A stretch of DNA of 20,000 bases from an uncultured virus (IMG/VR IMGVR_UViG_3300020577_005824) (Duplodnaviria; Heunggongvirae; Uroviricota; Caudoviricetes), in IMG/VR virus record IMGVR_UViG_3300020577_005824. The stretch is one strand, 5' to 3'. The translations under genes and the position numbers were made by a program. Below the pieces are notes generated by a model that saw nothing but the letters and a program-made list of their open reading frames with translations, was not told the origin of the DNA and did not search any database. Every line of letters begins with the position of its first letter. The first letter of the stretch is position 1. Positions 4,674 to 20,000 of the stretch are shown here, piece by piece.

Positions 4674-4715
4674 AACAAAAAAAACCTTAACTAATAAGTT
4701 AAGGTTTTTTTTGTT
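4674..4715. terminator. Bidirectional intrinsic terminator
   Basis: Perfect 19-bp inverted repeat AACAAAAAAAACCTTAACT-aata-AGTTAAGGTTTTTTTTGTT with A8/T8 tracts, lying between convergent gene blocks. Confidence 0.85.
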
Positions 4716-5154
4716 ACATTTTAAAGTCAGGTATAGAATTTGGATCTATAGTTGATTTATTAGTAGAAATAGGCTTAAACACTAGAGGTACTTCCACCAA
4801 TTCTGGATTTGCAATATCCTTCGATTGCTTTTCCATCTCTTTATAAACATCGCAAACCTTTGAATTATCGACTGGTAGATTTTTTTTTTCGGCTGAAGAA
4901 CTACCTCCAACCTCTCTTGACAAATACTCTGCCTTAAACTTAAAAGGTATATCATACATTCCTATAAGTGAAATGAGGTCTGTCAAAGAAGCTTTATATC
5001 CAACTACACTATTCTTATCTAGCTTTTCTCCAGATACAGTTATTTTAGCTTCATTTGGATCTATATCACACGCTTTTTTACAAAGAGCTACAAACATAGC
5101 ATCGGTATCGCTATCAGCGAAACTATCTATTTCCAAAAATTTAATTTCTGACAT
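4714..5154 (-). CDS. Hypothetical protein
   Basis: 146-aa ORF, last gene of the minus-strand block. Confidence 0.6.
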   Translation of the reverse strand: MSEIKFLEIDSFADSDTDAMFVALCKKACDIDPNEAKITVSGEKLDKNSVVGYKASLTDLISLIGMYDIPFKFKAEYLSREVGGSSSAEKKNLPVDNSKVCDVYKEMEKQSKDIANPELVEVPLVFKPISTNKSTIDPNSIPDFKM

Positions 5155-5166
5155 AATATAAATATT

Positions 5167-5196
5167 AAAAAAGGCCAGTAAATTAAAATACTGGCC
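5167..5196 (-). terminator. Intrinsic terminator after the SSB-like gene
   Basis: GGCCAGTA-N8-TACTGGCC stem (5173-5196) followed on the minus strand by T6 (A6 at 5167-5172). Confidence 0.65.
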
Positions 5197-5204
5197 AATA
5201 TAGA

Positions 5205-5909
5205 TTAGAATGGTAGATCTTCATCTTGTTGAGCAAAAGGATTAGTTCCAGGAGATACACCTGGCATCTGACCACCGCCTTGCTGATTATTTACAAATGT
5301 ATTAGATTGCTGTTGTTGGTTAAAAACCGGTGCCGCTTGATTGTTTTGAGCGGATTGACCTTGACTGAAAGGATTAGCAGAATTTTGTTGATTAACTGCA
5401 GGTGCTGAGTTATTTTGAACTGGAGCATTACCAAAAGGATTTTGGGCTTGTTGCTGAACTTTAGGTTGTGCTACCTGAGTATTTTGTTGTTGAAACGGTT
5501 GAGATTGAGCAGAAACGCCCATTAGCTGATGTAACGGAATAGCACCCTCGTCGATAAATGTAGCCCAATCATTATAAGTATTTAGCTTACCTTGAACTTT
5601 ACCTTTGAACTGAATCATAATAAAGTTTCCTAATGAAATTGCTCTCAATTTCTCTTCTAATACTTTCCCTCCAGATACATCGATGCATTGCCCTAAAGAC
5701 CCATCTTGATTTACCATTTGGATTTCAGCTACATAGAATGTAGTCCCTGGATTCTTGCCATGTAATTCAGTGAATTTCTTAAAATACCCTTCTATCTGTG
5801 TAGGATATTGAGTATTTCCGATGTTTTTTTGAGGCTCCCATCTTTGGTTATCACTACCTGATTGACCTACTTCTGCGTAATTACGCCCTGTTTTCTGATT
5901 CTGATTCAT
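5205..5909 (-). CDS. Single-stranded DNA-binding protein-like
   Basis: Beta-rich N-terminal domain, Gln/Asn/Pro-rich linker with NPF repeats and an acidic C-terminal tail DEDLPF, as in SSB tips; sits in the replication module. Confidence 0.7.
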   Translation of the reverse strand: MNQNQKTGRNYAEVGQSGSDNQRWEPQKNIGNTQYPTQIEGYFKKFTELHGKNPGTTFYVAEIQMVNQDGSLGQCIDVSGGKVLEEKLRAISLGNFIMIQFKGKVQGKLNTYNDWATFIDEGAIPLHQLMGVSAQSQPFQQQNTQVAQPKVQQQAQNPFGNAPVQNNSAPAVNQQNSANPFSQGQSAQNNQAAPVFNQQQQSNTFVNNQQGGGQMPGVSPGTNPFAQQDEDLPF

Positions 5910-6165
5910 GTTGTTTTGGTTTTAAATTGTTTTTTTGATTTTCATTTAATTTACGACGAGGCTTCACTCTAATCTCAGCTCTTATGCCGTATATAAGCTC
6001 TGAGAGGCATTTTAATTCTTTTTCCTTAAAAGATGCAATATCTCTTTTTATCCTGCGTGACGCTTGATCATTATCCATAATCTCTAGCTTTGCACAATCT
6101 GCAGACATAGCTACTAATGCATTTACCGCATTATTCAGTACCGGTAATATCTCTCTTTTTATCAT
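5881..6165 (-). CDS. Hypothetical protein
   Basis: 94-aa helical ORF overlapping both neighbours. Confidence 0.55.
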   Translation of the reverse strand: MIKREILPVLNNAVNALVAMSADCAKLEIMDNDQASRRIKRDIASFKEKELKCLSELIYGIRAEIRVKPRRKLNENQKNNLKPKQHESESENRA

Positions 6166-6481
6166 ACTCTAATTTAAACTTTTTCTTATTTTCATACTTC
6201 TCTCCCAACTCATCACTAACTGTAGCTCCAACGTACTTAGCATCGATTACAAACTGAAACCTTACGCTTATACCTAATATTGACAACACCTCCTCAAATT
6301 GACTTTCAGTTATATCTGCTTTAGAAACACCTTGAACATTCATGTAACTAGACATAAAATATTGGTACTCTAACCCAACCTCAGAACAAATGTATGACAA
6401 TGGTATATTAAATTCCTTTGACCTACTTACAATAAGCCTCTTTAATTCAGCGCTACCAAGATATACATCCATTAGTGTCAT
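6131..6481 (-). CDS. Hypothetical protein, possible HTH DNA-binding protein
   Basis: LKRLIVSRSKEFNIPLSYICSEVGLEYQYF resembles an XRE-like HTH; 4-bp overlap with the upstream gene. Confidence 0.45.
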   Translation of the reverse strand: MTLMDVYLGSAELKRLIVSRSKEFNIPLSYICSEVGLEYQYFMSSYMNVQGVSKADITESQFEEVLSILGISVRFQFVIDAKYVGATVSDELGEKYENKKKFKLEYDKKRDITGTE

Positions 6482-6777
6482 TCTATCTTTCTAACAACTA
6501 CTTTAGTACCTATTCTATCCCTGAAGCTTGAAAAAGACTCCTCGATAATCATAGAGTGCGACTTATTCAAAGCATCTTCTTCCTCATTAGGCTTTTCATC
6601 AGGCATCAATATAAGTATCGTCATTTCACCCTTAATAGCCCTGTCTTTTGGTCCTTTGTGCCATCCGCGAAATGTTTTTATGATAGAAATATCAACACAC
6701 TCTCGCTCTGTAGCTACGTTTTCCTTCGTAACCTTGTTGCTAAGAACTCTGTCAACTTCAATAAATTCTTTTTGCAT
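6478..6777 (-). CDS. Hypothetical protein
   Basis: The track start (TTG at 6795) falls inside the predicted -7 promoter box, so ATG at 6777 (MQKEFIE) is preferred. Confidence 0.55.
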   Translation of the reverse strand: MQKEFIEVDRVLSNKVTKENVATERECVDISIIKTFRGWHKGPKDRAIKGEMTILILMPDEKPNEEEDALNKSHSMIIEESFSSFRDRIGTKVVVRKIE

Positions 6778-6792
6778 AAACGCTTGTTTTGA

Positions 6793-6824
6793 CAAACATA
6801 AGAAGTTTATTTGATATTATCAAA
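6793..6824 (-). promoter_or_regulatory. Bacteroidota-type housekeeping promoter (-33 TTTG / -7 TAnnTTTG)
   Basis: The minus strand reads TTTG-ATAATATCAAATAAACTTCT(20 nt)-TATGTTTG, an exact consensus match with correct spacing in an intergenic gap. Confidence 0.7.
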
Positions 6825-6840
6825 GAAAAAGTTAAAAAAA

Positions 6841-7314
6841 TTATGATAAATATTCGTCGATTATCTTAATAGCCTCTTCAGCTCCTACGGCAAAAACTGC
6901 CTTATACCCCTGCTCTTCCAATCTTTTCAATATGGCATATTGTTCCTGAACATGCTCATTGGAGGATAAACTACCATCTTTAAGGTATGGTGATTTACCA
7001 TCTCGTTTTAGCTCTATGAAAAGACCGTTATACCCTAATTTATCAATGTATTTATCCATCATTGGCTTAGCGATAAATAAGTCAGGTAATCCGCGAGAAG
7101 ATCGCAATCTTGCATTCATACCTCCAATATGCTTTCCTAGGTTCATTCCTGACGCAAGGTCACATTGAAATATAACATCTGGGTAGTTATCTTTTAAATG
7201 CTTGCATACCGATACCTGAATGTTAGCCTCTTTTATCTTAGTATTTTTCTTGAACGTCTTTTTAAACTCCTCTGGAGTAAAAAGATTAGCTTCTGATGTT
7301 GATTTTTTAGCCAC
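6841..7314 (-). CDS. VRR-NUC-type PD-(D/E)XK nuclease (putative Holliday junction resolvase)
   Basis: E..IQ...V, RGLPDLFIA, GLFIELK, Q...L..L...GY.A motifs. The start is probably GTG at 7314, overlapping the helicase stop, rather than 7380. Confidence 0.8.
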   Translation of the reverse strand: MAKKSTSEANLFTPEEFKKTFKKNTKIKEANIQVSVCKHLKDNYPDVIFQCDLASGMNLGKHIGGMNARLRSSRGLPDLFIAKPMMDKYIDKLGYNGLFIELKRDGKSPYLKDGSLSSNEHVQEQYAILKRLEEQGYKAVFAVGAEEAIKIIDEYLS

Positions 7315-9343
7315 GGTTATTATTTCTTTTGTTAGGGTTAAACTCATAATTCTGAGGTGGAGTTTCTTCATAATGAACATGCAGATTATTGTCTATATTC
7401 AATATGTAAGACTCGACGCCTGTCTCAGTTCTCTTGTCGGTAAGACGAAGGTAAAGTTTACCTTTCATAAACTCTACTTCATCAGGATTATCAATAGACT
7501 GACTATTCGGATCTATAATCTTTGATGTAGAGAAATACCCATCTGCATTTGCTGTTGTTTTAATACCGCCACGAACCTTCTTGCCTGTATCCCTCAATAC
7601 AGCATTTCCAGCATCTCCCGACATGTGTAGTAATCCAAATACTACGCAGTTTGTTTGCTTCGCTATCTCCTTACATACTCCTGAGTTGTAAATGGTAGCC
7701 TGAATTTCATCTTTACCAGCAGCGTCCATCTGAGTAATACCATCAACAACAATAAGCTTTATTTCCTTACCTGTAGTAGCGTATATATGTTGTATTGTAG
7801 CATACACATTCTTTTGATTGAATCCGTTGCCGTTAACAACGAATATGTTTCGTTTAGTGTAAACCTCTATCTTCTCAATAAACTCAGCAACATTACCCTC
7901 GTTTAGCTCTTTTCTGTAAAGCATGTCTCTCATGTTAACACCTAAAGTCATTTGGGCTAATCTTCCATATAGCTGAAATCTACTCATCTCTCCATTCAGA
8001 TACAATGTAGGTATGCCGTCCATGGCATTTCTAAAAGCAGTATACTGAACAAGTATGGATTTATATGTTCCACCTAATCCTATCCACTCATAAAAAGAAC
8101 CAGGAAGAGCACCTCCAAACATATCTCTGTCTACAGGAGGAATATATGTTCTTATCATTCCCTTTGTCATATCCATCTTCACAAGCTCCTTGACCATATC
8201 CTCTGCAGTTTCATAAGATAACGAATCCTTAGCTGCGGCCGAAGCGATATTGTTTTGAAGTGTAGATACTGCATAATTCATCATATCTACAAGAGAAGCC
8301 CTTTTGTAATCTATGTAACCCATCTTGTCATAAAAGTTACCTATCTTACCTACAACATCCATAATCTCGCCTATCTGCAGCTTATATGTGTAAAGCATGG
8401 CTGTAATACGCATAATATCATTAGCAGCTACATCAGTAGTGTAATTCGCTATATATGGAGGAGCTACGAATGATGAGTTATTGTCTATATCTCTAACCTT
8501 CACGGAGCCGTGTTCGTGCTGATTATGGAAGAATGCTGAACGTACAGACTGATGCCACTTGCTGTCTGGAGTAGTATATCGGCTGTCAATCATTCTGATA
8601 ACATCGTCAGGACTAGCTCCACATCTATTCATAGCACATGCAAGTGCGTGTATGTAAACATTCTTTTGTCCATCTACATATTCTTTATTTCTTTCTACCC
8701 ACTTTACGCAAGTATCGAATATAGCATCTAGGTTATTAGTAGCCTCATGCTCTCCGGCAGAAGTATGTACGTGGCCTGTAACTACAGTGTTATACTTTTC
8801 TACATTCACCTCAAATGGTGCGGCATCCTTTATAATACATTCAGGGTCATAAGAAACATAACAAAGACGACACACATCTTTTCCAGAAGGGTCTACATTT
8901 ACAAAGTAGTTATTTTCTACATATTCCTGAAGATGTAAGAATGACGCTCTGTGGTTATTCGGGTCGGTAACATTAGTTTGAAAAACTATCTTTATACCAT
9001 TGTTGCTAGGAGATATAAATACACAGCATACATGAGGGTCTTTGGATAATTGCTGCTTCAAAAGCTTTATCTTTTCAGTATCTATTTTATCAACATCTAT
9101 AACAGTAAGCGAAGAATACGTTTCTACAGAATTAATTGACCTAGTACCTTCTTTGAAAGTTCCTGACCATGTAACAGCAGGAAGGAGTTTTTTCTTTTCC
9201 TTATATTCCTTCTCATCTGTTATGTTACGAAGCAAGGCTATTTGGTTAGCCCACTCTCCTGACAATATACCTACAGCTACATCGTGAGCATTGACGTTCT
9301 GAATATCCTTCGAAAAGGTATTTGGATAAAATGATATTAGCAT
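7307..9343 (-). CDS. Primase-helicase: BT4734/VirE-N-like primase domain, PriCT-like region and DnaB/RecA-type helicase
   Basis: N-terminal KKKLLPAVTWSGTF, IDVD, FISPSNNGIK and DPSGKDVCRLCYVSYDP; central GQKNVYIHALACAMNRCG; C-terminal Walker A GLGGTYKS, YLNGEM, Walker B IVVDG and LLHM. The start is likely ATG 9343 (MLISFY). Confidence 0.8.
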   Translation of the reverse strand: MLISFYPNTFSKDIQNVNAHDVAVGILSGEWANQIALLRNITDEKEYKEKKKLLPAVTWSGTFKEGTRSINSVETYSSLTVIDVDKIDTEKIKLLKQQLSKDPHVCCVFISPSNNGIKIVFQTNVTDPNNHRASFLHLQEYVENNYFVNVDPSGKDVCRLCYVSYDPECIIKDAAPFEVNVEKYNTVVTGHVHTSAGEHEATNNLDAIFDTCVKWVERNKEYVDGQKNVYIHALACAMNRCGASPDDVIRMIDSRYTTPDSKWHQSVRSAFFHNQHEHGSVKVRDIDNNSSFVAPPYIANYTTDVAANDIMRITAMLYTYKLQIGEIMDVVGKIGNFYDKMGYIDYKRASLVDMMNYAVSTLQNNIASAAAKDSLSYETAEDMVKELVKMDMTKGMIRTYIPPVDRDMFGGALPGSFYEWIGLGGTYKSILVQYTAFRNAMDGIPTLYLNGEMSRFQLYGRLAQMTLGVNMRDMLYRKELNEGNVAEFIEKIEVYTKRNIFVVNGNGFNQKNVYATIQHIYATTGKEIKLIVVDGITQMDAAGKDEIQATIYNSGVCKEIAKQTNCVVFGLLHMSGDAGNAVLRDTGKKVRGGIKTTANADGYFSTSKIIDPNSQSIDNPDEVEFMKGKLYLRLTDKRTETGVESYILNIDNNLHVHYEETPPQNYEFNPNKRNNNRG

Positions 9344-9353
9344 AAATTGAAAA

Positions 9354-10499
9354 TTAAGGTTTAGCGTACTCTGCAATTAAGAAACAGAAGATGTTCTCCT
9401 CCTCAGTATTTACCTTCGGAATAATAAAAGACGGTCTGTTTTTCTCAGATGAGTAATGTAACACGAACTCAATAGACTCCATGCTATTCAATACTTTTAT
9501 CAAGTGATTATGAGCAAAGTATTTAGTAATAGGTGTCTTTGTAATATTCTCCATAGTGATGATCTCCTCACCGTCTTTCTTAGTCAATGTATCTGAAGAT
9601 GTAAGTATGAGATTATTATCTTCACCGCAAGAAAAAAATACTTGCTTGACATCACTATCAGAAGCATAAAGCTGTAGTCTCTTGACTGCAGAATTACATT
9701 CTATAGCGTTTATTATGTACTTGTTTTCTGGACGCTTAGAGAACAATGATTCGCTATTTGGAAACTTTACATTTGCCAATGTCGTTACCACCTCAAACAT
9801 CTCCGAAGAATCACTCCCTGTATAGAAAATAGCATGTTTACCGTTATGAGAAACGCCTATCTCTCCTTTGTCTCCAAGTAATTTCAATAAACAACTAGCA
9901 GCGTCAGTTGTAATATTTATCTTTTCCCATTTATTAATTGAAATAGGAGGAACTGCAGCACGGCACATTAACTCATTAGTTAATCCAGTGAATACCATTT
10001 TATTGTCTATCTCAGCAATGTTAATGGCTACCATATTGGCATTCTTGTTATCGTCATCTACAAAGTTATAAGCATATTTCAATCCTAACTTTAAATAGAA
10101 TTGTCCTATGTTTATAGAATTTGTCATTTCCTCAATGGAAATTCGCGGAAAAGACTCAGGGAAACAATCCATGCCAATGTTATACTTGGACTTACCGCAT
10201 TTAAGCTCTATAGAATCCTCTTTCTTCTGAGTAATTGTAATTTGATTGTCACTGAATAACTTCACTGTTTTAAGTAATAGTTGAGCAGCTACACAAATAG
10301 CGAATGATGCATTTGCCTTTACTTGGCAGTCTGTTCTTAGCTGAGTGCCACTGTTGCACGCTATGATATCCATGCTATCGGAAGAGATGTTTAGCATGAA
10401 ATTATCCATTGCTGGGATAATTGATTTTGCTGGCACAAACTTAATGGCCTTTTCTAATTTGAAGAGTAAGAGTTCTCTATCTATAACTACCTTATTCAT
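9354..10499 (-). CDS. dnaN: DNA polymerase III beta sliding clamp-like protein
   Basis: 381 aa. N-terminus IDRELLLFKLEKAIKFVPAKSIIPAMDNFML, then ESFP, KFPNSESLF and a C-terminal RPSFII..FCFLI, matching the DnaN layout. Confidence 0.8.
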   Translation of the reverse strand: MNKVVIDRELLLFKLEKAIKFVPAKSIIPAMDNFMLNISSDSMDIIACNSGTQLRTDCQVKANASFAICVAAQLLLKTVKLFSDNQITITQKKEDSIELKCGKSKYNIGMDCFPESFPRISIEEMTNSINIGQFYLKLGLKYAYNFVDDDNKNANMVAINIAEIDNKMVFTGLTNELMCRAAVPPISINKWEKINITTDAASCLLKLLGDKGEIGVSHNGKHAIFYTGSDSSEMFEVVTTLANVKFPNSESLFSKRPENKYIINAIECNSAVKRLQLYASDSDVKQVFFSCGEDNNLILTSSDTLTKKDGEEIITMENITKTPITKYFAHNHLIKVLNSMESIEFVLHYSSEKNRPSFIIPKVNTEEENIFCFLIAEYAKP

Positions 10500-10511
10500 A
10501 ATCTGATTTCT

Positions 10512-10913
10512 TTATTCCTTTTTTAAAAATGTTAATATAGGGTCTTTTTGGCAAATATAAAGAGTCTTTTCATTTATTCCTTTCGTGATAACATAATCAT
10601 AATAAGTTTTCCATGATTCGTAATCTTCATCTTTATCAACATAGACCTCAAAGTGTGTTTTGTTAGTAGCTTCTTTTGTTGCTGGCATCCAAGGCATTCT
10701 TGGCCACATCCACTTTCCCTTCGTTAATCTACTATTTACAGATATAGCTCCTCTGAATATATGATTTACACCTATTGGTTCCATAAAGTAAAGAATCCTA
10801 CCTAAAACAATGGCGTTTGATCTATTCTTTTCGGTTACTAATGTAAAGTCATTGATAGCGCCTTTCTTTAGTTGCCATGGCGCCACACCGTAATTACTAG
10901 ATTGCTTTGCCAT
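10512..10913 (-). CDS. Hypothetical protein
   Basis: 133-aa ORF tightly packed in the operon. Confidence 0.6.
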   Translation of the reverse strand: MAKQSSNYGVAPWQLKKGAINDFTLVTEKNRSNAIVLGRILYFMEPIGVNHIFRGAISVNSRLTKGKWMWPRMPWMPATKEATNKTHFEVYVDKDEDYESWKTYYDYVITKGINEKTLYICQKDPILTFLKKE

Positions 10914-10914
10914 G

Positions 10915-12918
10915 TTATATAAAATCTGGAGGTGTAGGAAGGATTGATTCAGGAATTACTGGCGCTTCATTAATTTGATAAGCTATACCATCATTACGAA
11001 ACTTATTCTTTTCAATATGATCCCAAGATTTAATTACAACTTCACTGTCTACAACTCCTTTATTTTCTGACGGAATGAATTGAGATTTGTTGTCTTCTAT
11101 TCCTTTGATGAGTTGCTGCATTTGATCGAATGTTGGCTCGATAGTTTGCTTGGAATCGAAAATAATGTTTTCGTTACAACTATCCTTATTTTCTTCAAAC
11201 ATTGGTCCCGAATCCACCACTTTATCTTGTTGTGCCGGTACACTAACTTCTCCAGGAAGTGATATATTATTGTCAATAGGTAACTCATTTTTATTTAATA
11301 ATTGCTTGATTAATATTTCCTCTATTTTCTCCATCTCAAGAACCTCCTTTCCATCCATAAGCTGATTTATATCTTTCTCCTTATGAACCAAAAGGTTATA
11401 TAAATTCTCGTCAATGCTATCTTTTGCGAATGTATAATGAATGCGTAGATGCTGATTTTTTTTCTCAGGGTGCTTACATCTAAATTGCGCCTGACGAAGC
11501 TCTCTAGGAGTAAATGGAAAGTTTATGTGGAACACATCACTCGCTATAGATAAATCTAACGCTTCGCCTGCAGCAAGATAATTCCCTAAGAACACTTGCT
11601 TGTCAGGATTATCCCAAAACTCACGCTTAAATCTATCTCTGTCATAAGAGTTAGTGGTTCCATCTACCTTTAAGCATCTATCTCCAAAATACTCTTCAAG
11701 TATCTTAAACGGCTCCTTGTAAGAACCAAATACAACAACCTTTCCTTTTTCCTCGATAATATCTTCGATAGCCTGAATCATTCCCTTCATCTTAGCCTTA
11801 CAAGTGATGATATTTATTGAGTGAACGTGACCACGTAAAGCAGCCATATTCTTTTCCTTGGCCATCTCCTCGATAATAGAATTATACTCATCACGGTAAT
11901 CGTCAAAATCAAAAGTGTACCTTGATACTACATCCTCCGGCATATCGAAGCAATCATCCATTTTCTTCACAAGCATAAAATTTAGCATCTTGTTTTTAAG
12001 ATCCTGAATGTTCTTGGCACCAGTAACTTTCTCGCCACCACGAGAGGCGGTCTTGATAGTGTACTCATCAGTAAATTTCTTATAAGATTCACCTAGTGGG
12101 TGATTGGCTATTTTGAAGTAATTGAATAAATCGTTAAAACGATTAGGGATTGGAGTTCCTGATAATAATGTAATCTTAGCATTAGGATATGCTCCAGTAA
12201 TCTCATTTATGACCTTTGAGCGATCAGAAAATCTATTTTTGATACGATGACACTCATCGATGATAAAGTGTCCTATATCGTCAGATAAAAGATAGTCCTT
12301 AAACTTAGCCAGTATATCAAAATTTATGATAACGAACCTCTCCTGCAAAGCTTTGAATGATTTAGACTTCGAGCTATCAAGCATGGTGAAGTATAACTCA
12401 TTGAATCCCCAAGGAGCATTAGTTAAATCTCTAAACCATCCCCACTTCGCGATAGCAGGACATATAATCACTGTTCTTCTGATATTCAATATTCTAGTCA
12501 ATGAAGCGGAGGTTATAGATTTACCTAGTCTCATCTCAAATGCCAGGAAGTTAACACGATGCATTAATCCGAATCCTATACCCTCTTTCTGATGAGCGTA
12601 TAATTTAACAAAATACGGTAGCTTATCAGACATGAGTTGAATAGCTGAGTTTTCGTAAAAAGAATATGCTTCCTCTAAAGATTCATAGAATTTATTTCTT
12701 CTGTTTTCCTCGCTTATAGCCTCGGAAAAGTTCTTGAAAGATATTCTTATGAACTCAAACATCGCCTGCTTCCAAGTTCTAGGTATAGCTGCTGTTATAA
12801 CTCCTGAGTCAATATCTATGTCAAATCCATAACATTTAGCTAATACTATCTCTGTAGGATGCCATAACTTTTTCTCGAATCGTACGTGAGTGTTACTTAT
12901 TAGTTGAATGTCTTTCAT
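10915..12918 (-). CDS. SNF2-family (SF2) helicase
   Basis: LYAHQ, FEMRLGKS (motif I), IICP, IIDECH (II), LSGTP (III), GEALDL and Q..FR (VI). Confidence 0.88.
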   Translation of the reverse strand: MKDIQLISNTHVRFEKKLWHPTEIVLAKCYGFDIDIDSGVITAAIPRTWKQAMFEFIRISFKNFSEAISEENRRNKFYESLEEAYSFYENSAIQLMSDKLPYFVKLYAHQKEGIGFGLMHRVNFLAFEMRLGKSITSASLTRILNIRRTVIICPAIAKWGWFRDLTNAPWGFNELYFTMLDSSKSKSFKALQERFVIINFDILAKFKDYLLSDDIGHFIIDECHRIKNRFSDRSKVINEITGAYPNAKITLLSGTPIPNRFNDLFNYFKIANHPLGESYKKFTDEYTIKTASRGGEKVTGAKNIQDLKNKMLNFMLVKKMDDCFDMPEDVVSRYTFDFDDYRDEYNSIIEEMAKEKNMAALRGHVHSINIITCKAKMKGMIQAIEDIIEEKGKVVVFGSYKEPFKILEEYFGDRCLKVDGTTNSYDRDRFKREFWDNPDKQVFLGNYLAAGEALDLSIASDVFHINFPFTPRELRQAQFRCKHPEKKNQHLRIHYTFAKDSIDENLYNLLVHKEKDINQLMDGKEVLEMEKIEEILIKQLLNKNELPIDNNISLPGEVSVPAQQDKVVDSGPMFEENKDSCNENIIFDSKQTIEPTFDQMQQLIKGIEDNKSQFIPSENKGVVDSEVVIKSWDHIEKNKFRNDGIAYQINEAPVIPESILPTPPDFI

Positions 12919-13115
12919 ACTGATTTTTTTAATAAAATTGAATAAGTTGTAATGATTTCATTGACACCTTCTTTTTTATCGAATGCAATTACGCTGCTTG
13001 TGGTCATAGGGGACATTGGAATGTAATCTCTTTTGTTACACATTATATCCATAGTTTCCTCAAATGCGCGCTTACTTGTTTCTGACACGACTTTAAATTC
13101 AATTTGAATAGCCAT
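12915..13115 (-). CDS. Small hypothetical protein
   Basis: 66-aa ORF coupled to both neighbours by start/stop overlaps. Confidence 0.55.
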   Translation of the reverse strand: MAIQIEFKVVSETSKRAFEETMDIMCNKRDYIPMSPMTTSSVIAFDKKEGVNEIITTYSILLKKSV

Positions 13116-14554
13116 TACTTCAACACCTCCTCTGTAAACTTAACTTCTAATTCCTCACCTTCAAATTTCACAAATTCACAGACCGCCATATATCCACGAG
13201 CCTCAATCTTCTCAATTATAGCATGTAAGTGTTTCTTATCAAATACATTGGCATCGTGTAAGAATATAATTTTTAATGTTGGATTTAACGACATAGCTAC
13301 CTCTACGCCAACATCCCATAAACGAGCAGTGTTTATCTGTCCGTCTTCTAATGGCAATCCATCTAAGTAAAGATTATCATCATCAAAGCTTAATCCCTGA
13401 ATAGGAAGCTGAGAGTTTTTGATTATGTTATCTCTATCTGACTCAAGCTTGTTGATAGCGGCATTTTTAGCAACTACAGCCTCTCGGCACTTCAATAACT
13501 CTCGCTGATGCTCTGCAAGCTTAGAGATATTATTACACTTCTCATTGTGAGCAATAGCATCATTTATCTGATGACTTACCTCATCTACCGAAGGGCGATG
13601 ATTAGAAGCTAACCACTGCTCGCCTTTGACTATATTTTCCTTAGCCGTAGCAACCTCTTGTTTAATGGTAGCTACAGCATTATCGCACTCCGCTACTGCA
13701 TTAGCTTGAATACCTTGTTGACGCTTAATTTCCTCATTAAGACGAAATATCTCAGCAGAAGCAGCGCTTATCTTAACATTTGCAGATTCTCTGAAGGTAT
13801 TGATTCTCATCTCTGCATTATCTACGGTTGCCTTAAATCCAACAACCTTATTGTTAATATCATCCCATTGTGATTGCGCTGCTCCAATAGAAGACATTGC
13901 CGTTTGCATTGCCGTAATATCAATCTTCGTGGAATACTTATCCACCTCCTCAGCAGAAAGTCCATGGTTGGAAAGTATAGCATCTAACTCCTCGGCTCTA
14001 TCACTATTCTTTTTCTTTTCTGCCTTCTCAAGCTTTATGTTTGCAGATACCACATCTATCTCCTGACCTTTACCAGTAAGAGCCTTGATAGTTTTTAGCT
14101 TATTCTCAGGTTTATCATTCAGCCATTGAGTAACATCAAAAGATACGTTTCCTATGATTGACTTAATAAGCGTAGCTGGAGATTTTAATACCTCTCCAAG
14201 CTCATTCTTAATAACCAATCTACCCTTGCTATCTTTTTTTGTGAAGTATAAGTCCATGACGTACTCCTTATGAACTCCATCTATAGTTCCGGCTATAGTA
14301 TGTGAAATCATTGCTCTTTCCTCACCTGCTTTGATAGGTTTTGTAGGTAACATCTTTGTGTTCATTGGAGACATCATAGCTTGAATAAGCGCTGATTTAC
14401 CTGAGCCATTTGGACCTATAAACATTAACGAACGCCCTCCAATGTCTACTACTACATTTTGGAGGTTTTTGAAGTTTTCAACTACTAACTTTACGGATTT
14501 TAATCCTTCTGGTAATTGTGTTTCTGAATCTGTTGCTGTCGTCTTTTTTGCCAT
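13115..14554 (-). CDS. SMC/Rad50-like coiled-coil P-loop ATPase
   Basis: VENFK, Walker A GPNGSGKS, a long central coiled coil and a C-terminal Walker B-like IIFLHDANVFD. Confidence 0.8.
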   Translation of the reverse strand: MAKKTTATDSETQLPEGLKSVKLVVENFKNLQNVVVDIGGRSLMFIGPNGSGKSALIQAMMSPMNTKMLPTKPIKAGEERAMISHTIAGTIDGVHKEYVMDLYFTKKDSKGRLVIKNELGEVLKSPATLIKSIIGNVSFDVTQWLNDKPENKLKTIKALTGKGQEIDVVSANIKLEKAEKKKNSDRAEELDAILSNHGLSAEEVDKYSTKIDITAMQTAMSSIGAAQSQWDDINNKVVGFKATVDNAEMRINTFRESANVKISAASAEIFRLNEEIKRQQGIQANAVAECDNAVATIKQEVATAKENIVKGEQWLASNHRPSVDEVSHQINDAIAHNEKCNNISKLAEHQRELLKCREAVVAKNAAINKLESDRDNIIKNSQLPIQGLSFDDDNLYLDGLPLEDGQINTARLWDVGVEVAMSLNPTLKIIFLHDANVFDKKHLHAIIEKIEARGYMAVCEFVKFEGEELEVKFTEEVLK

Positions 14555-14568
14555 TGTTTTTAATTTTA

Positions 14569-15621
14569 TTAATCTTTATAACTTTCTAATTTAGCTAATT
14601 CCTTTTTCCTCTGCTCGCAAAACTGAGCTACCTGGCAGTATTCTTCACATTTCCTGCTTGATCCTGCTCTTACCTCAATCCACAATTTACCTTTACCACC
14701 AATAATCTCGTATGAGTTCTTATTCTCGATGATAAACGTATCCGCAGCAGTCTTGCTATCAAATACTCTAACTGCTCTTTTTACAGTTCCCTGCTTCACG
14801 GCAAATGAATCTGATGTAGCCCATCTCTCTTCACCGGTACACTCAGGAACATCTCCATTTTCAGCACGAGTGTGTAAATCCATTCTGTGAAGAATGTACT
14901 TAAATACATCTTCACGAGGATAAAGCTTTACGTTGATTTCCTTAACTTGACGATCTGGATAATCCTTATTTCTTACAAATCCGTATCTATTCCAATCTCT
15001 GAATAACGCTACGATCTTAATTGCTGTAACGTTAAAGCCATGCTGCTCTTTTAACATGTAAGCATAGATATTAGTCTGGCGCTCCCACTTAACATTGGCT
15101 CCTGGAGCAGTGTATTGAAATGTAGAACAGAATTTATAATCATACAAGATACCAGTTTCCTTATCATACAAGTCAAAAGTACCTGAAAGCACCTTATCAC
15201 CAACCTGCAATTGCATGGTTATCTCATATACATATCTATCCCCAATTTCAGGGAAGAAAATAGGGATAAGACTAAATATCCAATTTGCTCCATTGCGGAG
15301 CTTATCTGCAGCCTCCTTATTAGATGTCGACATCTTATCAGCTTCCTGCATGATAGTCTCTGCAGTAGTAATGAATGCGCGCTTGCGCTCCGACTTAATA
15401 TTTGCTCGCTCAAGGATATGGTGTAATGCCGTACCCATAAGAGCATAAAGTCCATCAACCACATCTTCCTCATAGGTATGCTTTTTCTTCAATAAGCGAA
15501 TCTGCGGAGCGTCTATCAGCGTGGTAACGGATATGTCACCGGCAAGCTTATGTGTATCGTACTTTATAGCATCGTATAAGGTAGTTGGTAGACCAAACTT
15601 GTTAGTAAGTATTCTTGGCAT
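14569..15621 (-). CDS. PD-(D/E)XK exonuclease (Cas4/AddB-like recombination nuclease)
   Basis: SVTTL, GTALH, E...LSGTFD, LYDYK, QTNIY and a C-terminal Cys cluster CEEYCQVAQFC. Confidence 0.8.
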   Translation of the reverse strand: MPRILTNKFGLPTTLYDAIKYDTHKLAGDISVTTLIDAPQIRLLKKKHTYEEDVVDGLYALMGTALHHILERANIKSERKRAFITTAETIMQEADKMSTSNKEAADKLRNGANWIFSLIPIFFPEIGDRYVYEITMQLQVGDKVLSGTFDLYDKETGILYDYKFCSTFQYTAPGANVKWERQTNIYAYMLKEQHGFNVTAIKIVALFRDWNRYGFVRNKDYPDRQVKEINVKLYPREDVFKYILHRMDLHTRAENGDVPECTGEERWATSDSFAVKQGTVKRAVRVFDSKTAADTFIIENKNSYEIIGGKGKLWIEVRAGSSRKCEEYCQVAQFCEQRKKELAKLESYKD

Positions 15622-15745
15622 TTTTAGAGTAGTTTAGTTTTATACCTTTGTCAGAAGCATCGTCATACGATTTTTCTACGATTTTAGTTTTTAATGTAGA
15701 TCTCCACGCTTTTAGAGACTCTATTTTAAGGGTTTGTTTTGCCAT
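15602..15745 (-). CDS. Small hypothetical protein (47 aa), not in the ORF track
   Basis: MAKQTLKIESLKAWRSTLKTKIVEKSYDDASDKGIKLNYSKNAKNTY* fills the gap and overlaps both neighbours. Confidence 0.45.
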   Translation of the reverse strand: MAKQTLKIESLKAWRSTLKTKIVEKSYDDASDKGIKLNYSKNAKNTY

Positions 15746-15950
15746 GGTTTTTAAGTATTTTAATTTGATCTTTTGTTAATACATCTTTATATTCTTCGAT
15801 TGTCTCTTCTAACGAAATTCCATGTATTCTGACTCCGAAAAGCTTCTCTTTTTGCTCATCGGTTAGAGGAGGAATCAATAAAGTTTTGAAATCAGGAAAC
15901 TGTCCAGATTCTTCGAAAAATTGCCTATGCTGATATATATCGTTGCTCAT
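15726..15950 (-). CDS. Hypothetical protein
   Basis: 74-aa ORF following an AT-rich intergenic gap. Confidence 0.55.
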   Translation of the reverse strand: MSNDIYQHRQFFEESGQFPDFKTLLIPPLTDEQKEKLFGVRIHGISLEETIEEYKDVLTKDQIKILKNHGKTNP

Positions 15951-16013
15951 AATTTCCGTAAAGTTAAACTTTATTTTTTCGATAAAAAAATATTTTTGTC
16001 GAATTTTTAATAT

Positions 16014-16202
16014 TTAGAACTTATCTAAATAAGGCATGTTAAATTTGATCCTGTAGATAGATTCTCTGTTGTAATCCCACACTTCATAAACCACATTATT
16101 AGAGTCTATGACTATGTTGTTTGAAAGCTTTGTGATGGGAAATCTCGGAGGAGCATCTACCTGTTTCGGGAAGACGAACTTCGGAGGTTCTGGTGTTTTC
16201 AT
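16014..16202 (-). CDS. Hypothetical protein
   Basis: 62-aa ORF with a TAATG overlap with the upstream gene. Confidence 0.5.
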   Translation of the reverse strand: MKTPEPPKFVFPKQVDAPPRFPITKLSNNIVIDSNNVVYEVWDYNRESIYRIKFNMPYLDKF

Positions 16203-16666
16203 TATTTCACTTGTTTATAGTTTCTACCTGTAAGTTGTTTTGCTTTCCACTCCTCAGAGTCAGGAACCTCGGTCTCTAACTCCTGCTCGATGTAGAACAT
16301 GCAGTCTTGAATGAATTTCAATAACCTGGCTTTTGACATTGACGATAGGTCGATGAGGTAAACTTGAATTTGGCCTGTTTTCTGATTATACATTTCTTCT
16401 TTGGCTAGTTCTGCTTGTAGCATATATCTAGCCTTTACCTTATCTACCGCAGCCCATCCTTGGCGAGTATATCCTCGCATCGCAGCATCCATTAGAGGCC
16501 CATGAAGGAAAGCGTACATCCTCATCTTTTCAGGAGTCTTTGCTGAATGTTTTATGGATAAATCCACTTCAACTCCATCGTTTTCTACACAGTATCTTTC
16601 TACGTCAAAATTATTGAAGAATAAAAATCTTCCTTTATTGCACACGGCTTTAAAAATAGCTTGCAT
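16202..16666 (-). CDS. NinB/Orf-like recombination accessory protein (tentative)
   Basis: The C-terminal DLSSMSKARLLKFIQDCMFYIEQELETEVPD resembles the NinB-family ending; size and context fit. Confidence 0.45.
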   Translation of the reverse strand: MQAIFKAVCNKGRFLFFNNFDVERYCVENDGVEVDLSIKHSAKTPEKMRMYAFLHGPLMDAAMRGYTRQGWAAVDKVKARYMLQAELAKEEMYNQKTGQIQVYLIDLSSMSKARLLKFIQDCMFYIEQELETEVPDSEEWKAKQLTGRNYKQVK

Positions 16667-16793
16667 GATTACTGAGTTAAATACATTAATGTTATTATTA
16701 TGTCTAAAGTAACTGAATAAATGAATAATGGCGGAAAATCATCATCTTTATTAAAAACGAATACCCATAAAAGGTAAAACAAAAGCGTTATCA

Positions 16794-17192
16794 TTACTTC
16801 CTCCCTCTTTTTTTGTTACCTAATATGGCTCCTATAGGGCCGTGATTTTCTTCGTGAATGTATGGTTCAAGATTATGTTTATGATAATTTTGAAGAACGA
16901 ATGGCTTAGGATCCTCTTTTAAAATTTCACTGAGAGGACGAGGCTTGTTTTCTCGCGGGACATCTTCGAGAGTCTTTGCTATTTCTGGTCCATACACCTT
17001 AGTTCCTTCCGTTGATACGCCTATCATTTTACTTATACGTTCAGTTACGTCTCTTTCATTCATTTCTAATCCGTGACCTAGAAATATAATTGCTTTTTGA
17101 CTTTGAAGAAGTTTTTCTATGGCAATCCTTGTGGCGGTACCCATTCCTTCAGCTCCAATAACTATAATTTTATCCTTTTTCATTACCTTCAA
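16794..17192 (-). CDS. Hypothetical protein
   Basis: 132-aa ORF overlapping the RNase H gene; the start may be a slightly later ATG. Confidence 0.5.
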   Translation of the reverse strand: MKVMKKDKIIVIGAEGMGTATRIAIEKLLQSQKAIIFLGHGLEMNERDVTERISKMIGVSTEGTKVYGPEIAKTLEDVPRENKPRPLSEILKEDPKPFVLQNYHKHNLEPYIHEENHGPIGAILGNKKRGRK

Positions 17193-17664
17193 GTTTATTA
17201 ATTAATATACCCATTTCTATCTTAGCTGCAGCATCACACATGGCATTGGCACGAGACCTGCTTGCCATATTTGTATCGTCATGTCCCTTAACGTGCACTA
17301 AGAATATCTTCTTTCCGCTAAATAACTTCTTTATCTGCATCCTAGAGCCATACATCATCTTACTTAAATTCTTTAGCCTATACTTTCTAATGGCTACTTT
17401 ATCATGCTTCCAAATATGGATAGCGTTCATAGAGTCAGTGTTGATATGAACATCCTTGCATTTACTGAAGATGTCTTCCTGCTGCGACAGGAATACTAGG
17501 GCATTGATGATGCACTTAATTTCAGCCTCAGAAGGGCTAGAGCATTTCTTTCTAAGCTCACCAGACTTTGACATCCTTCCGGCATTTGAACTTATGTAGA
17601 AGGCGTATGTGCCACGATTATGTTTGGCACTATATGAAGCGTCGGTGGTTATGGTGACGTTCAT
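17170..17664 (-). CDS. rnhA: Ribonuclease HI-like protein
   Basis: Catalytic motifs ITTDAS, EAE, NTDS, HVKGH and N..CD..AK. Confidence 0.85.
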   Translation of the reverse strand: MNVTITTDASYSAKHNRGTYAFYISSNAGRMSKSGELRKKCSSPSEAEIKCIINALVFLSQQEDIFSKCKDVHINTDSMNAIHIWKHDKVAIRKYRLKNLSKMMYGSRMQIKKLFSGKKIFLVHVKGHDDTNMASRSRANAMCDAAAKIEMGILINKLEGNEKG

Positions 17665-18494
17665 CGCATTGATATATTTGATATTGGTGATGGAACTCTA
17701 CTTATAAGATTGTGACTTATATGAGTGTAAATTTGAGTTGTTTTTAGACTGCCATGACCAAGAAGCTTTTGGATAATTGAAATATCGGTTCCGTTTTCAA
17801 GTAAATGTGTAGCGTAGCAATGTCGAATAAGGTGAGGATAAACGTTTTTATTTTTTATTCCTGCATTCTCGGCAAGCTGATTAACAACCTCTCCGATGCT
17901 TCTACTTGAATATTGCAATGATGATTGTCCGTTCAATACATATTCCTTTGACTTATATTCTTTCCAATATCTTATTAAAAGTTCTTCTATGGAATTATCT
18001 AATCCAACCTGTCGATCTTTATTACCCTTGGCTTGTATTACGTTAATAATTCTTCTGTCTCTATCTATATGATTCCACTTTAGATTTATTAACTCAGACA
18101 CTCTAAGTCCACAAGAGTACAGTAGCGCTAGTATTACGCGATGTTTTAAGTTTTCGCAAGAATCAAACATTCTTTGTATTTCTTGAATAGAGAGAATTAT
18201 TGGCAATTTGTTGTTTTTCTTAGCATAGGGAATGTATTTAAACTTATTCTTTTGTCCTATACATATATCATAAAACTTTTTTATTGCAGAATGATAGTTT
18301 CGCTGAGTATTCACCTCTTTAAATGTACCTAAAAACTCCTTAATATCACTTTCGTTAATATTCTTAGGGTGGTCTTTTTTAGACTGAGAAAAGAAAAATT
18401 TAATACAACCAGAATAACTTTCAATGGTATTCTTGCTGTAATTTCTACGCTTCATTTCCTGCTCGAAATTGATTGCGTGTTCAGAGATATTCAT
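17661..18494 (-). CDS. Tyrosine recombinase, integron-integrase-like but without the IntI insertion
   Basis: SAM-like N-terminus RRNYSKNTIESY, then LYSCGLRVSE (R), KGNKDR (K), HLIRH, LGH and TTQIYTH (Y). Adjacent to an attI-like site and cassette array. Confidence 0.92.
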   Translation of the reverse strand: MNISEHAINFEQEMKRRNYSKNTIESYSGCIKFFFSQSKKDHPKNINESDIKEFLGTFKEVNTQRNYHSAIKKFYDICIGQKNKFKYIPYAKKNNKLPIILSIQEIQRMFDSCENLKHRVILALLYSCGLRVSELINLKWNHIDRDRRIINVIQAKGNKDRQVGLDNSIEELLIRYWKEYKSKEYVLNGQSSLQYSSRSIGEVVNQLAENAGIKNKNVYPHLIRHCYATHLLENGTDISIIQKLLGHGSLKTTQIYTHISHNLISRVPSPISNISMR

Positions 18495-18529
18495 TTTGAT
18501 TATTGATTTTATTAATGTTTTAAACTGAA

Positions 18530-18558
18530 ACTTACATATTTTATGTTAGTGGCAATGC
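18530..18558 (+). other. attI-like recombination site (predicted crossover G18545|T18546)
   Basis: GTTAGTGGCAATGC lies 51 bp from the integrase start and has no long attC hairpin to its left. There is a short imperfect dyad ACTTACATA-ttt-TATGTTAGT. Confidence 0.7.
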
Positions 18559-19416
18559 TACCCGAACACACGAGCAACTGCCAACTCATAATATTTTACC
18601 TCTTTTTCAATACCTATAAATTTTCGGTTCAACTCTTTTGCTCCTAAACAAGTTGTTCCTACTCCCATTGTGTTATCAAGCACATAATCGTTTTCGTCTG
18701 AATATGTAGCAATTATTTCTTTCATCAAACTTAAAGGTTTTTGAGTTGGGTGTATAGTCTTACCTTCACTTCCAAACTCCCAAATGGTTGTAGGGTAGTT
18801 AGTGTATTCTTGTTTTGTAACCAATCCAACAGGTCTGCTTTTTCTACTTCCATAGTTATCTGTATCAGTTGAGTTTTTATTGTACCTTTCAACTTTTACA
18901 AGTCCTTGTGGATTGTATGTCATTCTATTCTTACAACCATTTGCGGAAGCACCTTTGCTAAAAATCAAAATATTTTCGTGTTTCCTCATTGGTTTATTTT
19001 TAGCCTCCAAATGTCCGTTTGGGCGTGATTTTACCCATATAATTTCATACTTAAACAATTTTAAGTTTGATGAAATAAGTTGAGTTGTAAATGGTTGCGT
19101 TGCAGTTAAAATAATTGCTCCATTGTCGGTAATTATTCTCTCATACTCAACCCACAACTTGTTTAGGTCTAATACACTATCCCATTTATTTGCAGTCGTT
19201 CCATAAGGCAAATCAGCCAAAATAAGTTGAACCGATTTATCAGGAATAAGAGGTAAAATATCCATACAATCAGCATTGAACAAAGCACTGCCACTAACAC
19301 TGCATTGCTGCAATGGCGGCAGACTGCCAAACTTCAACTTATGTGCTTCTATTATCTTTTGTGCTATATTCATCTTTTCGTTCTTTTAATCCGCCACTGA
19401 CAGCAATGCTTTTACG
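18546..19416 (+). mobile_element. Gene cassette 1 (871 bp; DNA methyltransferase)
   Basis: Starts (G)TTAGTGGCAATGC. Its attC begins GCACTGCCACTAAC (19285-19298), the reverse complement at 13/14 positions. Confidence 0.8.
18558..19373 (-). CDS. DNA methyltransferase, N4-C/N6-A beta class
   Basis: ADC...IPDKSVQLILADLPYG (motif IV), HENILIF, HPTQKP and VLDNTMGVGTT...GIE (motif I); motif IV precedes motif I. Confidence 0.92.
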   Translation of the reverse strand: MNIAQKIIEAHKLKFGSLPPLQQCSVSGSALFNADCMDILPLIPDKSVQLILADLPYGTTANKWDSVLDLNKLWVEYERIITDNGAIILTATQPFTTQLISSNLKLFKYEIIWVKSRPNGHLEAKNKPMRKHENILIFSKGASANGCKNRMTYNPQGLVKVERYNKNSTDTDNYGSRKSRPVGLVTKQEYTNYPTTIWEFGSEGKTIHPTQKPLSLMKEIIATYSDENDYVLDNTMGVGTTCLGAKELNRKFIGIEKEVKYYELAVARVFG

Positions 19417-19422
19417 TTAGCC
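19292..19422 (+). repeat. attC-like site 1 (131 bp)
   Basis: CACTAAC-act-GCATTGCTG.CAATGGCGG-loop-CCGCCACTG(A)CAGCAATGC-ttttac-GTTAGCC: an 18-bp stem with one mismatch and one bulged base. Confidence 0.85.
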
Positions 19423-19793
19423 GCAAGCCTAAGCGACATCGTAACTAATAGTTAGGTTTGACATTGCCTCAATTGTAAAAAGCAACTGACCTGCCACATC
19501 ATAACCATTGTAAACTGTTATCGTAAGGTCGTTATGATACCCTTTGCCGATAGTCTTTTCTTCTTCTTTAATTTCGTGTATCTTATCGCCAAATGCAGCA
19601 TATTGGTACTTGTCGTTTACGGCAAAGTAAGTTGAGCCTTCGCCAGTTCCTTTTTCAATTGATTTTATTCGTTTCATTTTTATTTGTGTTGTGAGAAAGG
19701 CCAGCGGCTAACAGCGGTTTTGCAATAGCCGCCCGACACATCTCGGTTAATAATTAAATTCTTCTTTGGCGGCCATCGCAAAGCCGCAAAACG
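19417..19793 (+). mobile_element. Gene cassette 2 (377 bp; 82-aa ORF)
   Basis: Starts (G)TTAGCCGCAAGCCT. Its attC begins AGGCCAGCGGCTAAC (19698-19712), the reverse complement at 13/15 positions. Confidence 0.8.
19429..19677 (-). CDS. Hypothetical cassette protein (82 aa)
   Basis: ORF with an A-rich leader that fills the cassette; its stop abuts the cassette boundary. Confidence 0.7.
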   Translation of the reverse strand: MKRIKSIEKGTGEGSTYFAVNDKYQYAAFGDKIHEIKEEEKTIGKGYHNDLTITVYNGYDVAGQLLFTIEAMSNLTISYDVA

Positions 19794-19799
19794 TTACAG
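19706..19799 (+). repeat. attC-like site 2 (94 bp)
   Basis: GGCTAAC-a-GCGGTTTTGCAATAGCCGCC-loop-GGCGGCCATCGCAAAGCCGC-aaaac-GTTACAG: a 20-bp stem with 3 transition mismatches. Confidence 0.85.
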
Positions 19800-19844
19800 G
19801 TAATAGGGGTGAAGTGCTTCGATTGATATTCTCGTTTGAAATTT

Positions 19845-20000
19845 TTAATTAAACCATTTGAGTTCTGTCGTTCCATTGAAGCCTTTTTGCCACACATACC
19901 AAGCATACGCAACAGCACTTCCACCGCCAGCAATCATTTTTTCAAATTCAGCGTTCTTTGCACAAAGCAGCCGAGAACTTGAAACATAAACGGTCTTTGG
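19845..20000 (-). CDS. C-terminus of a probable phage-type DNA adenine methyltransferase (cassette 3; 5' part outside the window)
   Basis: Translated by hand: PKTVYVSSSRLLCAKNAEFEKMIAGGGSAVAYAWYVWQKGFNGTTELKWFN*. The YAW(F/Y)VW.KG ending is typical of small NPP(Y/F)-type phage methylases, but the catalytic motifs are not visible. Confidence 0.6.
   Translation of the reverse strand, partial: PKTVYVSSSRLLCAKNAEFEKMIAGGGSAVAYAWYVWQKGFNGTTELKWFN

Follow-up and report, generated by a model that had tools for sequence, protein, structure and literature searches.

The window analysed here is the stretch of 20,000 nt at the very end of a virus record of 68,372 nt (G000, with C1 as its contig), which is linear, 96% complete and has no overlap between its ends. 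Genes from position ~4700 to 20000 of the window are located on the minus strand; among them, primase/helicase-like, clamp-like and helicase-like genes were named from their translations only, and a PD-(D/E)XK nuclease and an RNase H were assigned by family matches. Intergenic TAnnTTTG sites precede many genes of G000 (the consensus was adopted, as an assumption, from the preliminary description of this DNA) and the best chromosomal relatives of the recombinase described below are mostly from Bacteroidota, hence the host is likely a Bacteroidota bacterium. Two copies of a ~40-nt GC-rich direct repeat, possibly an origin or a regulatory site, were found in the intergenic region C1:6930-7030. 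The features at the right end of the window and at the start of the contig are as follows (slashes mark crossover positions):

17170-17664, minus strand: RNase H gene (PF00075), downstream neighbour of the recombinase, outside the array
17661-18494, minus strand: tyrosine recombinase of 277 aa, XerA-like (NF040815)
18495-18545, plus strand: attI-like left half, rich in AT and lacking a hairpin arm; a TACATAT motif immediately precedes the predicted crossover
18546-19416, polarity plus: cassette 1, ends complementary at 13/14 positions
18558-19373, minus strand: ORF of cassette 1, N6/N4 DNA methyltransferase of 271 aa (PF01555)
19295-19419, plus strand: attC1, consisting of TAAC, 3-nt spacer, stem, 70-nt loop, stem, 6-nt spacer and G19416/TTA
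19417-19793, polarity plus: cassette 2, ends complementary at 12/14 positions
19429-19677, minus strand: ORF of cassette 2, 82 aa; longest open frame 92 codons on minus vs 57 on plus
19709-19796, plus strand: attC2, with G19793/TTA, from scan and folding
19794-20000, polarity plus: cassette 3, cut by the contig end, with an ORF on the minus strand from 19845 to beyond 20000
C1:17-141, 660-732 and 1537-1606, polarity plus: three further attC outside the window, with ORFs between them on the minus strand

The recombinase passes the NF040815 model (225.7 bits vs the cut-off of 220) and falls below the IntI model TIGR02249 (183 vs the cut-off of 265). Its catalytic residues R131, K156, H221, R224, H247 and Y256 are intact and invariant in 16 aligned relatives. 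Residues 168-201 span positions 172-248 of VchIntIA, with 32 residues where VchIntIA has 75, and therefore the IntI-specific insertion near patch III is absent. A single match to PF00589 was obtained in G000, making this the only gene of its type there. The ATG of the RNase H gene overlaps the recombinase stop codon (ATGA, 17661-17664).

The crossover is predicted at G18545/T18546 (G18545/TTAG), ~50 nt from the recombinase ATG, and in most of 46 viral loci a TACATAT-like motif lies equally far (~50 nt) from the ATG; a few rows of this set probably represent junctions with a missed attC. The last 12 nt of the attI-like left half are identical in loci L212 and L227. The array had earlier been placed at 18558..20000, which is the right location with a start that needs to be moved 13 nt further left, to 18545. 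As had been stated, TAnnTTTG is missing near attI, with none within the 22 nt before G18545; among attI-side junctions the motif was found in 0/46 viral loci, 4/10 host arrays lying 5' of the recombinase and 0/13 lying 3' of it, and since most host junctions are without the motif too, its absence is weak evidence. In a related locus (L203:4920-5555, G001) the recombinase and the attI-like site are separated by an inserted gene of 211 aa that gives a second match, a partial one, to the N-terminus of the recombinase. The possibility that the recombinase module is a cassette itself, with AAC at its 3' end, was rejected as not general, being seen only here and in L001.

On the plus strand, the hairpins follow the plan TAAC, short spacer, stem, loop, stem, long spacer and C-GTTA. 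The second (GTT-side) stem arm of attC1 has one extra base, and its folding energy is -21.3 kcal/mol for the minus vs -17.7 kcal/mol for the plus strand; attC2 forms a full hairpin from the minus strand (z -2.8) and not from the plus strand. The first 14 nt of cassettes 1 and 2 match the reverse complement of their own last 14 nt at 13/14 and 12/14 positions, in comparison with 9/14 and 5/14 at the neighbouring junctions. Formation of these hairpins by chance is ruled out: the site scanner returned none scoring at least 11 in C1:2000-66900 (65 kb), and 200 resamples of 18401-20000 gave four such sites altogether, vs two in the real sequence. A search of Rfam produced two sub-threshold chance matches only.

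The product of cassette 2 has no match in Pfam, NCBIfam, PHROG or PADLOC. The truncated ORF of cassette 3 encodes a methyltransferase C-terminus (phrog_799); the lengths of open frames on the two strands tie at 51 aa, and the strand is given by a full cassette in L127, 94.6% identical, which encodes the whole protein on the corresponding strand. The first ~21 nt of cassette 3 (window 19793-19813) are unlike the L127 copy and three sequencing runs, with A kept at position 11. At the contig start, one cassette ORF is a Dam-like methyltransferase, and the GTTA of the attC at C1:1537-1606 overlaps the stop codon of a native upstream gene (C1:1604-1912). Because both ends of the record fall in the same kind of array, the window end and the contig start most likely belong to one array of at least six cassettes that was broken by assembly.

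The contig start and 19279-19299 share a 21-nt repeat. That it reflects a copy of cassette 1 carrying a different hairpin was considered and rejected; more likely it marks another methyltransferase cassette whose start is the same, a situation found in L129. The two-ORF cassette at C1:138-732 is 94% identical to one in L239, and the hairpins downstream of both have a common central loop motif and different arms. Logan contigs have loose ends at G/TT junctions. In one of them (depth 6) an attC2-like arm runs directly into the beginning of cassette 1; this contig was not counted as an excision circle, because it is one base shorter than the present attC2 and possibly comes from another replicon.

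The sites are near-palindromic, therefore the polarity of the array needed tests. Out of 203 distinct cassettes collected from 207 viral loci, 16 pairs belonging to 14 families were nearly identical in their interiors. On the plus strand, the downstream hairpin was kept and the upstream one changed in eight pairs and the reverse occurred in none, both hairpins changed in six, and two pairs had the same context. In agreement with this, four relatives of cassette 1 keep its hairpin at 92-98% identity, their left and right neighbours differing with a break at G/TT and their interiors being only ~70% identical overall; L149, whose product is a 98% amino-acid relative of the cassette 1 protein, has a different hairpin. 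The end of the array near the integrase is stemless, and the far end is a full hairpin. Furthermore, the minus strand folds lower in 152/167 viral and 50/61 host hairpins, by ~2 kcal/mol on average, which in the available text of Nivina 2016 (PMC5027507) is also the size of the bottom-strand advantage of classical attC. Cassette ends pair over ~14 nt, and 165/165 cassettes have A at position 11 of their start, facing a mismatched partner, in the same sense in phages and hosts. The last point also led us to reject a plain flip of the interior of a host cassette; moreover, no viral cassette interior matched another on the opposite strand.

On these sequence comparisons the polarity of the array is plus, each cassette having the form TT-gene-AAC-hairpin-G with its gene antisense within. 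The orientation proposed in the preliminary description thus agrees with the pair test, the stemless near end, the attI motif, the folding of the minus strand and the position-11 A. The two ways in which it could have failed were checked in silico and did not refute it: with no pair keeping the upstream hairpin alone vs eight for the downstream one, the crossover would not map to the opposite arm, and the conserved stemless junction would put attI at the integrase end rather than the far end. The replacement of the AAC-side hairpin, found in 6 of the 14 informative pairs, had been missed in that description, as had the fact that the start of many ORFs falls within their own hairpin. Owing to the AAC-side changes the choice of strand may be loose; they may reflect top-strand recombination, homologous recombination in the conserved methyltransferase start, or fast evolution of the arms.

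To compare gene orientation with site orientation, the surroundings of related recombinases were scanned at 107 viral and 158 chromosomal loci, of which 56 and 31, respectively, had at least two sites; identical interiors were removed before counting. The 113 viral cassettes comprised 81 inverted, one canonical and 31 uncalled, whereas among 52 cassettes from host chromosomes 37 were canonical, four inverted and 11 uncalled. The tabulation suggested earlier therefore gives inversion in 81 of 82 callable phage cassettes and canonical orientation in 37 of 41 callable host cassettes. At the level of arrays, all viral ones (37/37) were inverted and lay on the 5' side of the recombinase, while 17/18 chromosomal arrays were canonical, six of them on the 5' and 11 on the 3' side and always pointing away from the recombinase. 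Host arrays located after (L036, L099, L104) and before (L037, L059, L098) the recombinase are mixed on the tree. The only inverted chromosomal array (L291) contains two cassettes for methyltransferases, and its recombinase falls within the phage clade; for both reasons it is likely a mis-binned phage contig. Phage hairpins were nearer to host hairpins in the same polarity than in the reversed one in 144/158 cases, the best pair reaching 86%. By sequence, then, phages and host chromosomes use the same family of sites, with genes inverted in the former and canonical in the latter.

The same layout was recognised in cultured phages of Flavobacteriia: according to the GenBank gene calls, the hairpins of Leef_1, P12002L, tooticki6-1 and 11b lie on the strand opposite to the genes. 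Leef_1 has the full arrangement of recombinase, junction ~60 nt upstream, hairpins and co-directional genes, and the other three arrays are recombinase-free. The array of Polaribacter phage Leef_1 (L209:3237-7846) is headed by a gene annotated as 'integrase', which may not be a lysogeny integrase. A second array in a 310-kb phage (L205:72-3661, G003), ~11 kb from the recombinase-linked one, is also inverted. We consider it near certain that the inversion is real. All three cassette ORFs of the window are on the minus strand, co-directional with the integrase and the replication genes, as previously noted and as confirmed by the ORF map and the homologous L127 cassette; the earlier contrast with classical integrons holds for the inversion itself, but the comparison also needed Bacteroidota chromosomes, where the same sites accompany canonical genes.

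Of 34 phage recombinases, 33 form one branch (97/93), hence the many phage arrays do not represent independent origins and the inversion counts may reflect one or two of them. The exception is the distant recombinase of Leef_1 (36% identity), which has a long branch and an unsure placement. Relatives of the recombinase in archaeal MAG loci (L057, L063 and others, from Woesearchaeota and Aenigmatarchaeota) also have attC-like hairpins upstream, and Leptospira phage LE1, a distant recombinase match, has no clear array.

As to expression, the cassette genes are likely transcribed by read-through of the phage early operon from the far end of the array. Past the far-most attC, the genes keep to the same strand in 24 of 29 viral loci and lie on the opposite one in two of 29; the array of G004 faces a divergent gene at its far end. 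The next gene starts at most 30 nt after the recombinase stop codon in 32/55 viral vs 3/43 host loci. No terminator-like sites were detected on the minus strand in window 16500-20000, and four weak terminator-like hairpins lie on that strand between C1:10385 and 2399. Upstream of the array, the minus strand has intergenic TAnnTTTG sites at C1:10625 and C1:10805; the list continues with C1:63553 (in a gene) and 55172, its in-gene matches being restricted to those with TTG. RNA-run contigs, which carry no strand information, cover the cassettes and not the recombinase. The scan for sigma-70 promoters gave fewer matches than shuffled sequences and is uninformative for this host group.

The hairpins themselves contribute to the coding sequences. 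The start codon and the first 25 residues of cassette 1 are contained in attC1, and an in-frame ATG within its own hairpin is available to 27/81 inverted cassettes, 12 of which lack any ATG within the initial 90 nt of their interior. The start of the cassette 1-type methyltransferase gets its in-frame ATG from the hairpin in 26/26 distinct copies and is joined to about five hairpin families.

A different, improbable explanation accepts the inversion and supposes that each cassette is transcribed from a promoter in its own attC loop or before its ORF, phage-specific or off-consensus, so that the position in the array is irrelevant. The AT-rich loops directly before the ORFs, with a start codon in 27 of the 81 inverted cassettes, the divergent gene faced by the G004 array and the weak terminator-like sites upstream would agree with such promoters; however, only 5/167 viral hairpins have TAnnTTTG on the gene-sense strand, compared with 19 that have it on the opposite one, and the 24/29 arrays that continue a same-strand operon argue for read-through.

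More doubtful still is the view that the orientation, acquired with the module by a single ancestral phage and passed on to its descendants, is a frozen accident or replication-strand constraint (in the latter variant the bottom strand is needed on a given replication template), with read-through a consequence and not a cause. The single branch holding 33 of the 34 phage recombinases together with that of L291 is what common inheritance would leave, and the far-end junctions differ between phages, implying that the module moves while keeping its polarity. Against this, Leef_1 has the same layout with a distant recombinase (36%; placement unsure), and the recombinase-free arrays of P12002L, tooticki6-1 and 11b are inverted too.

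Finally, it is very improbable, and largely refuted, that the recombinase cuts the other strand, with the array really on minus, the hairpin belonging to the transcriptionally upstream gene and nothing inverted: hairpin replacement with a sharp AAC break in six families, one methyltransferase start with some five hairpin families and a GTT-side arm whose longer spacer and extra base are unlike classical attC would suit it, but the pair test (none vs eight), the stemless integrase end with its conserved attI motif opposite a full far-end stem, and the same asymmetry in host arrays with canonical genes all speak against it.

Under read-through from the phage operon, the mechanism would be as follows. 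By analogy with IntI, the recombinase would fold and cut the minus ('bottom') strand of attC at AA/C, and cassette circles would be inserted at G18545/TT. The module of attI and recombinase would sit within a one-strand operon, and therefore only genes antisense to the site polarity would be transcribed and kept by selection. New cassettes would land last in the transcript, just ahead of the recombinase, and the hairpin loop, read first, would often provide the start codon.

With regard to the cargo, 80 viral cassette proteins were scanned (81 less one duplicate), of which 15 matched methyltransferase PHROGs, three were PAPS reductases and most had no named match; among the cassette proteins of this phage itself, 3/5 matched methyltransferase PHROGs. 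Among the host cassettes are ones for TIR and AbiJ-type defence domains, for metal transport and for resistance enzymes. As an example, the chromosomal array of Chryseobacterium lacus (L098:2378-4881) has cassettes for a flavin monooxygenase, which we take to resemble Tet(X), and a LinB-like nucleotidyltransferase, and a TAnnTTTG site just ahead of its attI-like junction. The array likely serves the capture and swap of accessory genes, above all of anti-restriction methyltransferases, and is less likely a position-dependent expression switch.

Single inverted cassettes sit inside the host arrays L059, L312 and L410, and thus the phage and host pools exchange cassettes; the one in L410 encodes a phage-type dATP/dGTP pyrophosphohydrolase and adjoins an AbiLi-like cassette. 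On this exchange rests a tentative and rather doubtful proposal, in which phage and host share one site family and the opposite gene polarity acts as a filter between the pools. In such a case, and with the same reservation, host cassettes, including TIR and AbiL-type ones, would face against the operon on arrival in the phage array and remain unexpressed, phage cassettes landing in a host array would likewise be antisense to its promoter, each pool would be expressible at home, and the loop of phage attC would be an exchangeable module of start codon and N-terminus.

If the reading favoured here is true, lytic-type phages run a gene-capture platform of their own, stocked with anti-restriction methyltransferases, whose recombinase is missed by integron searches. 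The integron logic would be rewired, with expression coming from the phage operon and not from Pc and with the recombination site itself translated, which would also account for a group of unusual phage N-termini with VSGS or VLGAV at their end. Cultured pairs, such as Leef_1 and Polaribacter sp. AHE13PA, allow tests of whether a recombinase without the IntI insertion can use folded single-stranded sites and how cassettes acquire their orientation when made.

Like in classical integrons, the recombinase is divergent from the array direction with attI by its 5' end, and the sites are imperfect hairpins bounded by AAC and GTT, with G/TT junctions and a bottom strand that folds ~2 kcal/mol better. 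Unlike in classical integrons, the recombinase is without the IntI-specific insertion and below the TIGR02249 cut-off, both a longer spacer and an extra base are found on the GTT-side arm, in attC1 as well as in host members of the site family, the extrahelical bases on the R''-L'' arm typical of classical attC were not seen, cassette ends pair over ~14 nt, position 11 always being mismatched, and genes are antisense to attC with no Pc-like motif at attI. The insertion that the phage enzyme lacks is the one by which IntI is defined in the available text of Ghaly 2022 (PMC9668308), Ghaly 2021 (PMC8618304) and Smyshlyaev 2021 (PMC8138268). Inverted cassettes in the accessible part of Nivina 2016 (PMC5027507) are those with gene and attC flipped together, and this inversion of whole cassettes is treated as an error, whereas here the gene is flipped with respect to attC.

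The literature available, in which few subscription journals were covered, contains clusters of attC in phages and rAID-1 in hosts, and the inversion of genes vs attC was unreported in it. In lytic phages, among them Polaribacter phage P12002L, Qi et al. 2023 (PMC9892861) described attC clusters with methyltransferases as cargo; in the portion of that article accessible to us, the phages have no cognate recombinase, a 'divergent' attC is noted in P12002L and, unlike for the present arrays, systematic inversion is not reported. P12002L_attC1, the one site that failed with IntI1 in that work, corresponds to the plus-strand site at 30008-30056 written in the gene direction. P12002L_attC2 recombined there exclusively as the bottom strand; its position is that of the first junction of the array, which is stemless and AT-rich (GTTAGGC at 29237), on plus and opposite to the genes. 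It may be the attI-like site, and its behaviour with a foreign enzyme is a weak hint in favour of the present polarity. This attI-like junction (L425:29170-29250) has no annotated recombinase gene beside it, and about ten more hairpins of the same family lie at 30008-40949 of P12002L.

The nearest host system is rAID-1 of Bacteroidales (Ross et al., bioRxiv 10.1101/471110), which likewise has a XerD-family recombinase by an array of small genes. As far as the accessible text goes, its repetitive intergenic sequences are called integron-like and could belong to the same family of sites, and it consists of at least two co-directional genes for immunity proteins downstream of the recombinase on host chromosomes. 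In the phage, unlike in rAID-1, the array is upstream, the genes are inverted and the downstream gene is an RNase H, a layout that sets the two apart; a further criterion for rAID-1 is a recombinase >44% identical to BF9343_RS08045. The far-end junctions are unrelated native phage sequences that begin with GTT(A), which in many cases is a stop codon when read on the gene strand, and in this they are like the attG secondary sites of Loot et al. (10.1101/2022.09.11.507474), which in the text consulted were demonstrated for IntI in bacterial genomes and serve here as a model only. A pipeline requiring the IntI domain would label the array as CALIN, a class with no integrase nearby, whereas an intact recombinase and an attI-like site adjoin it; the system is integron-like in its working, yet not an integron of the IntI type.
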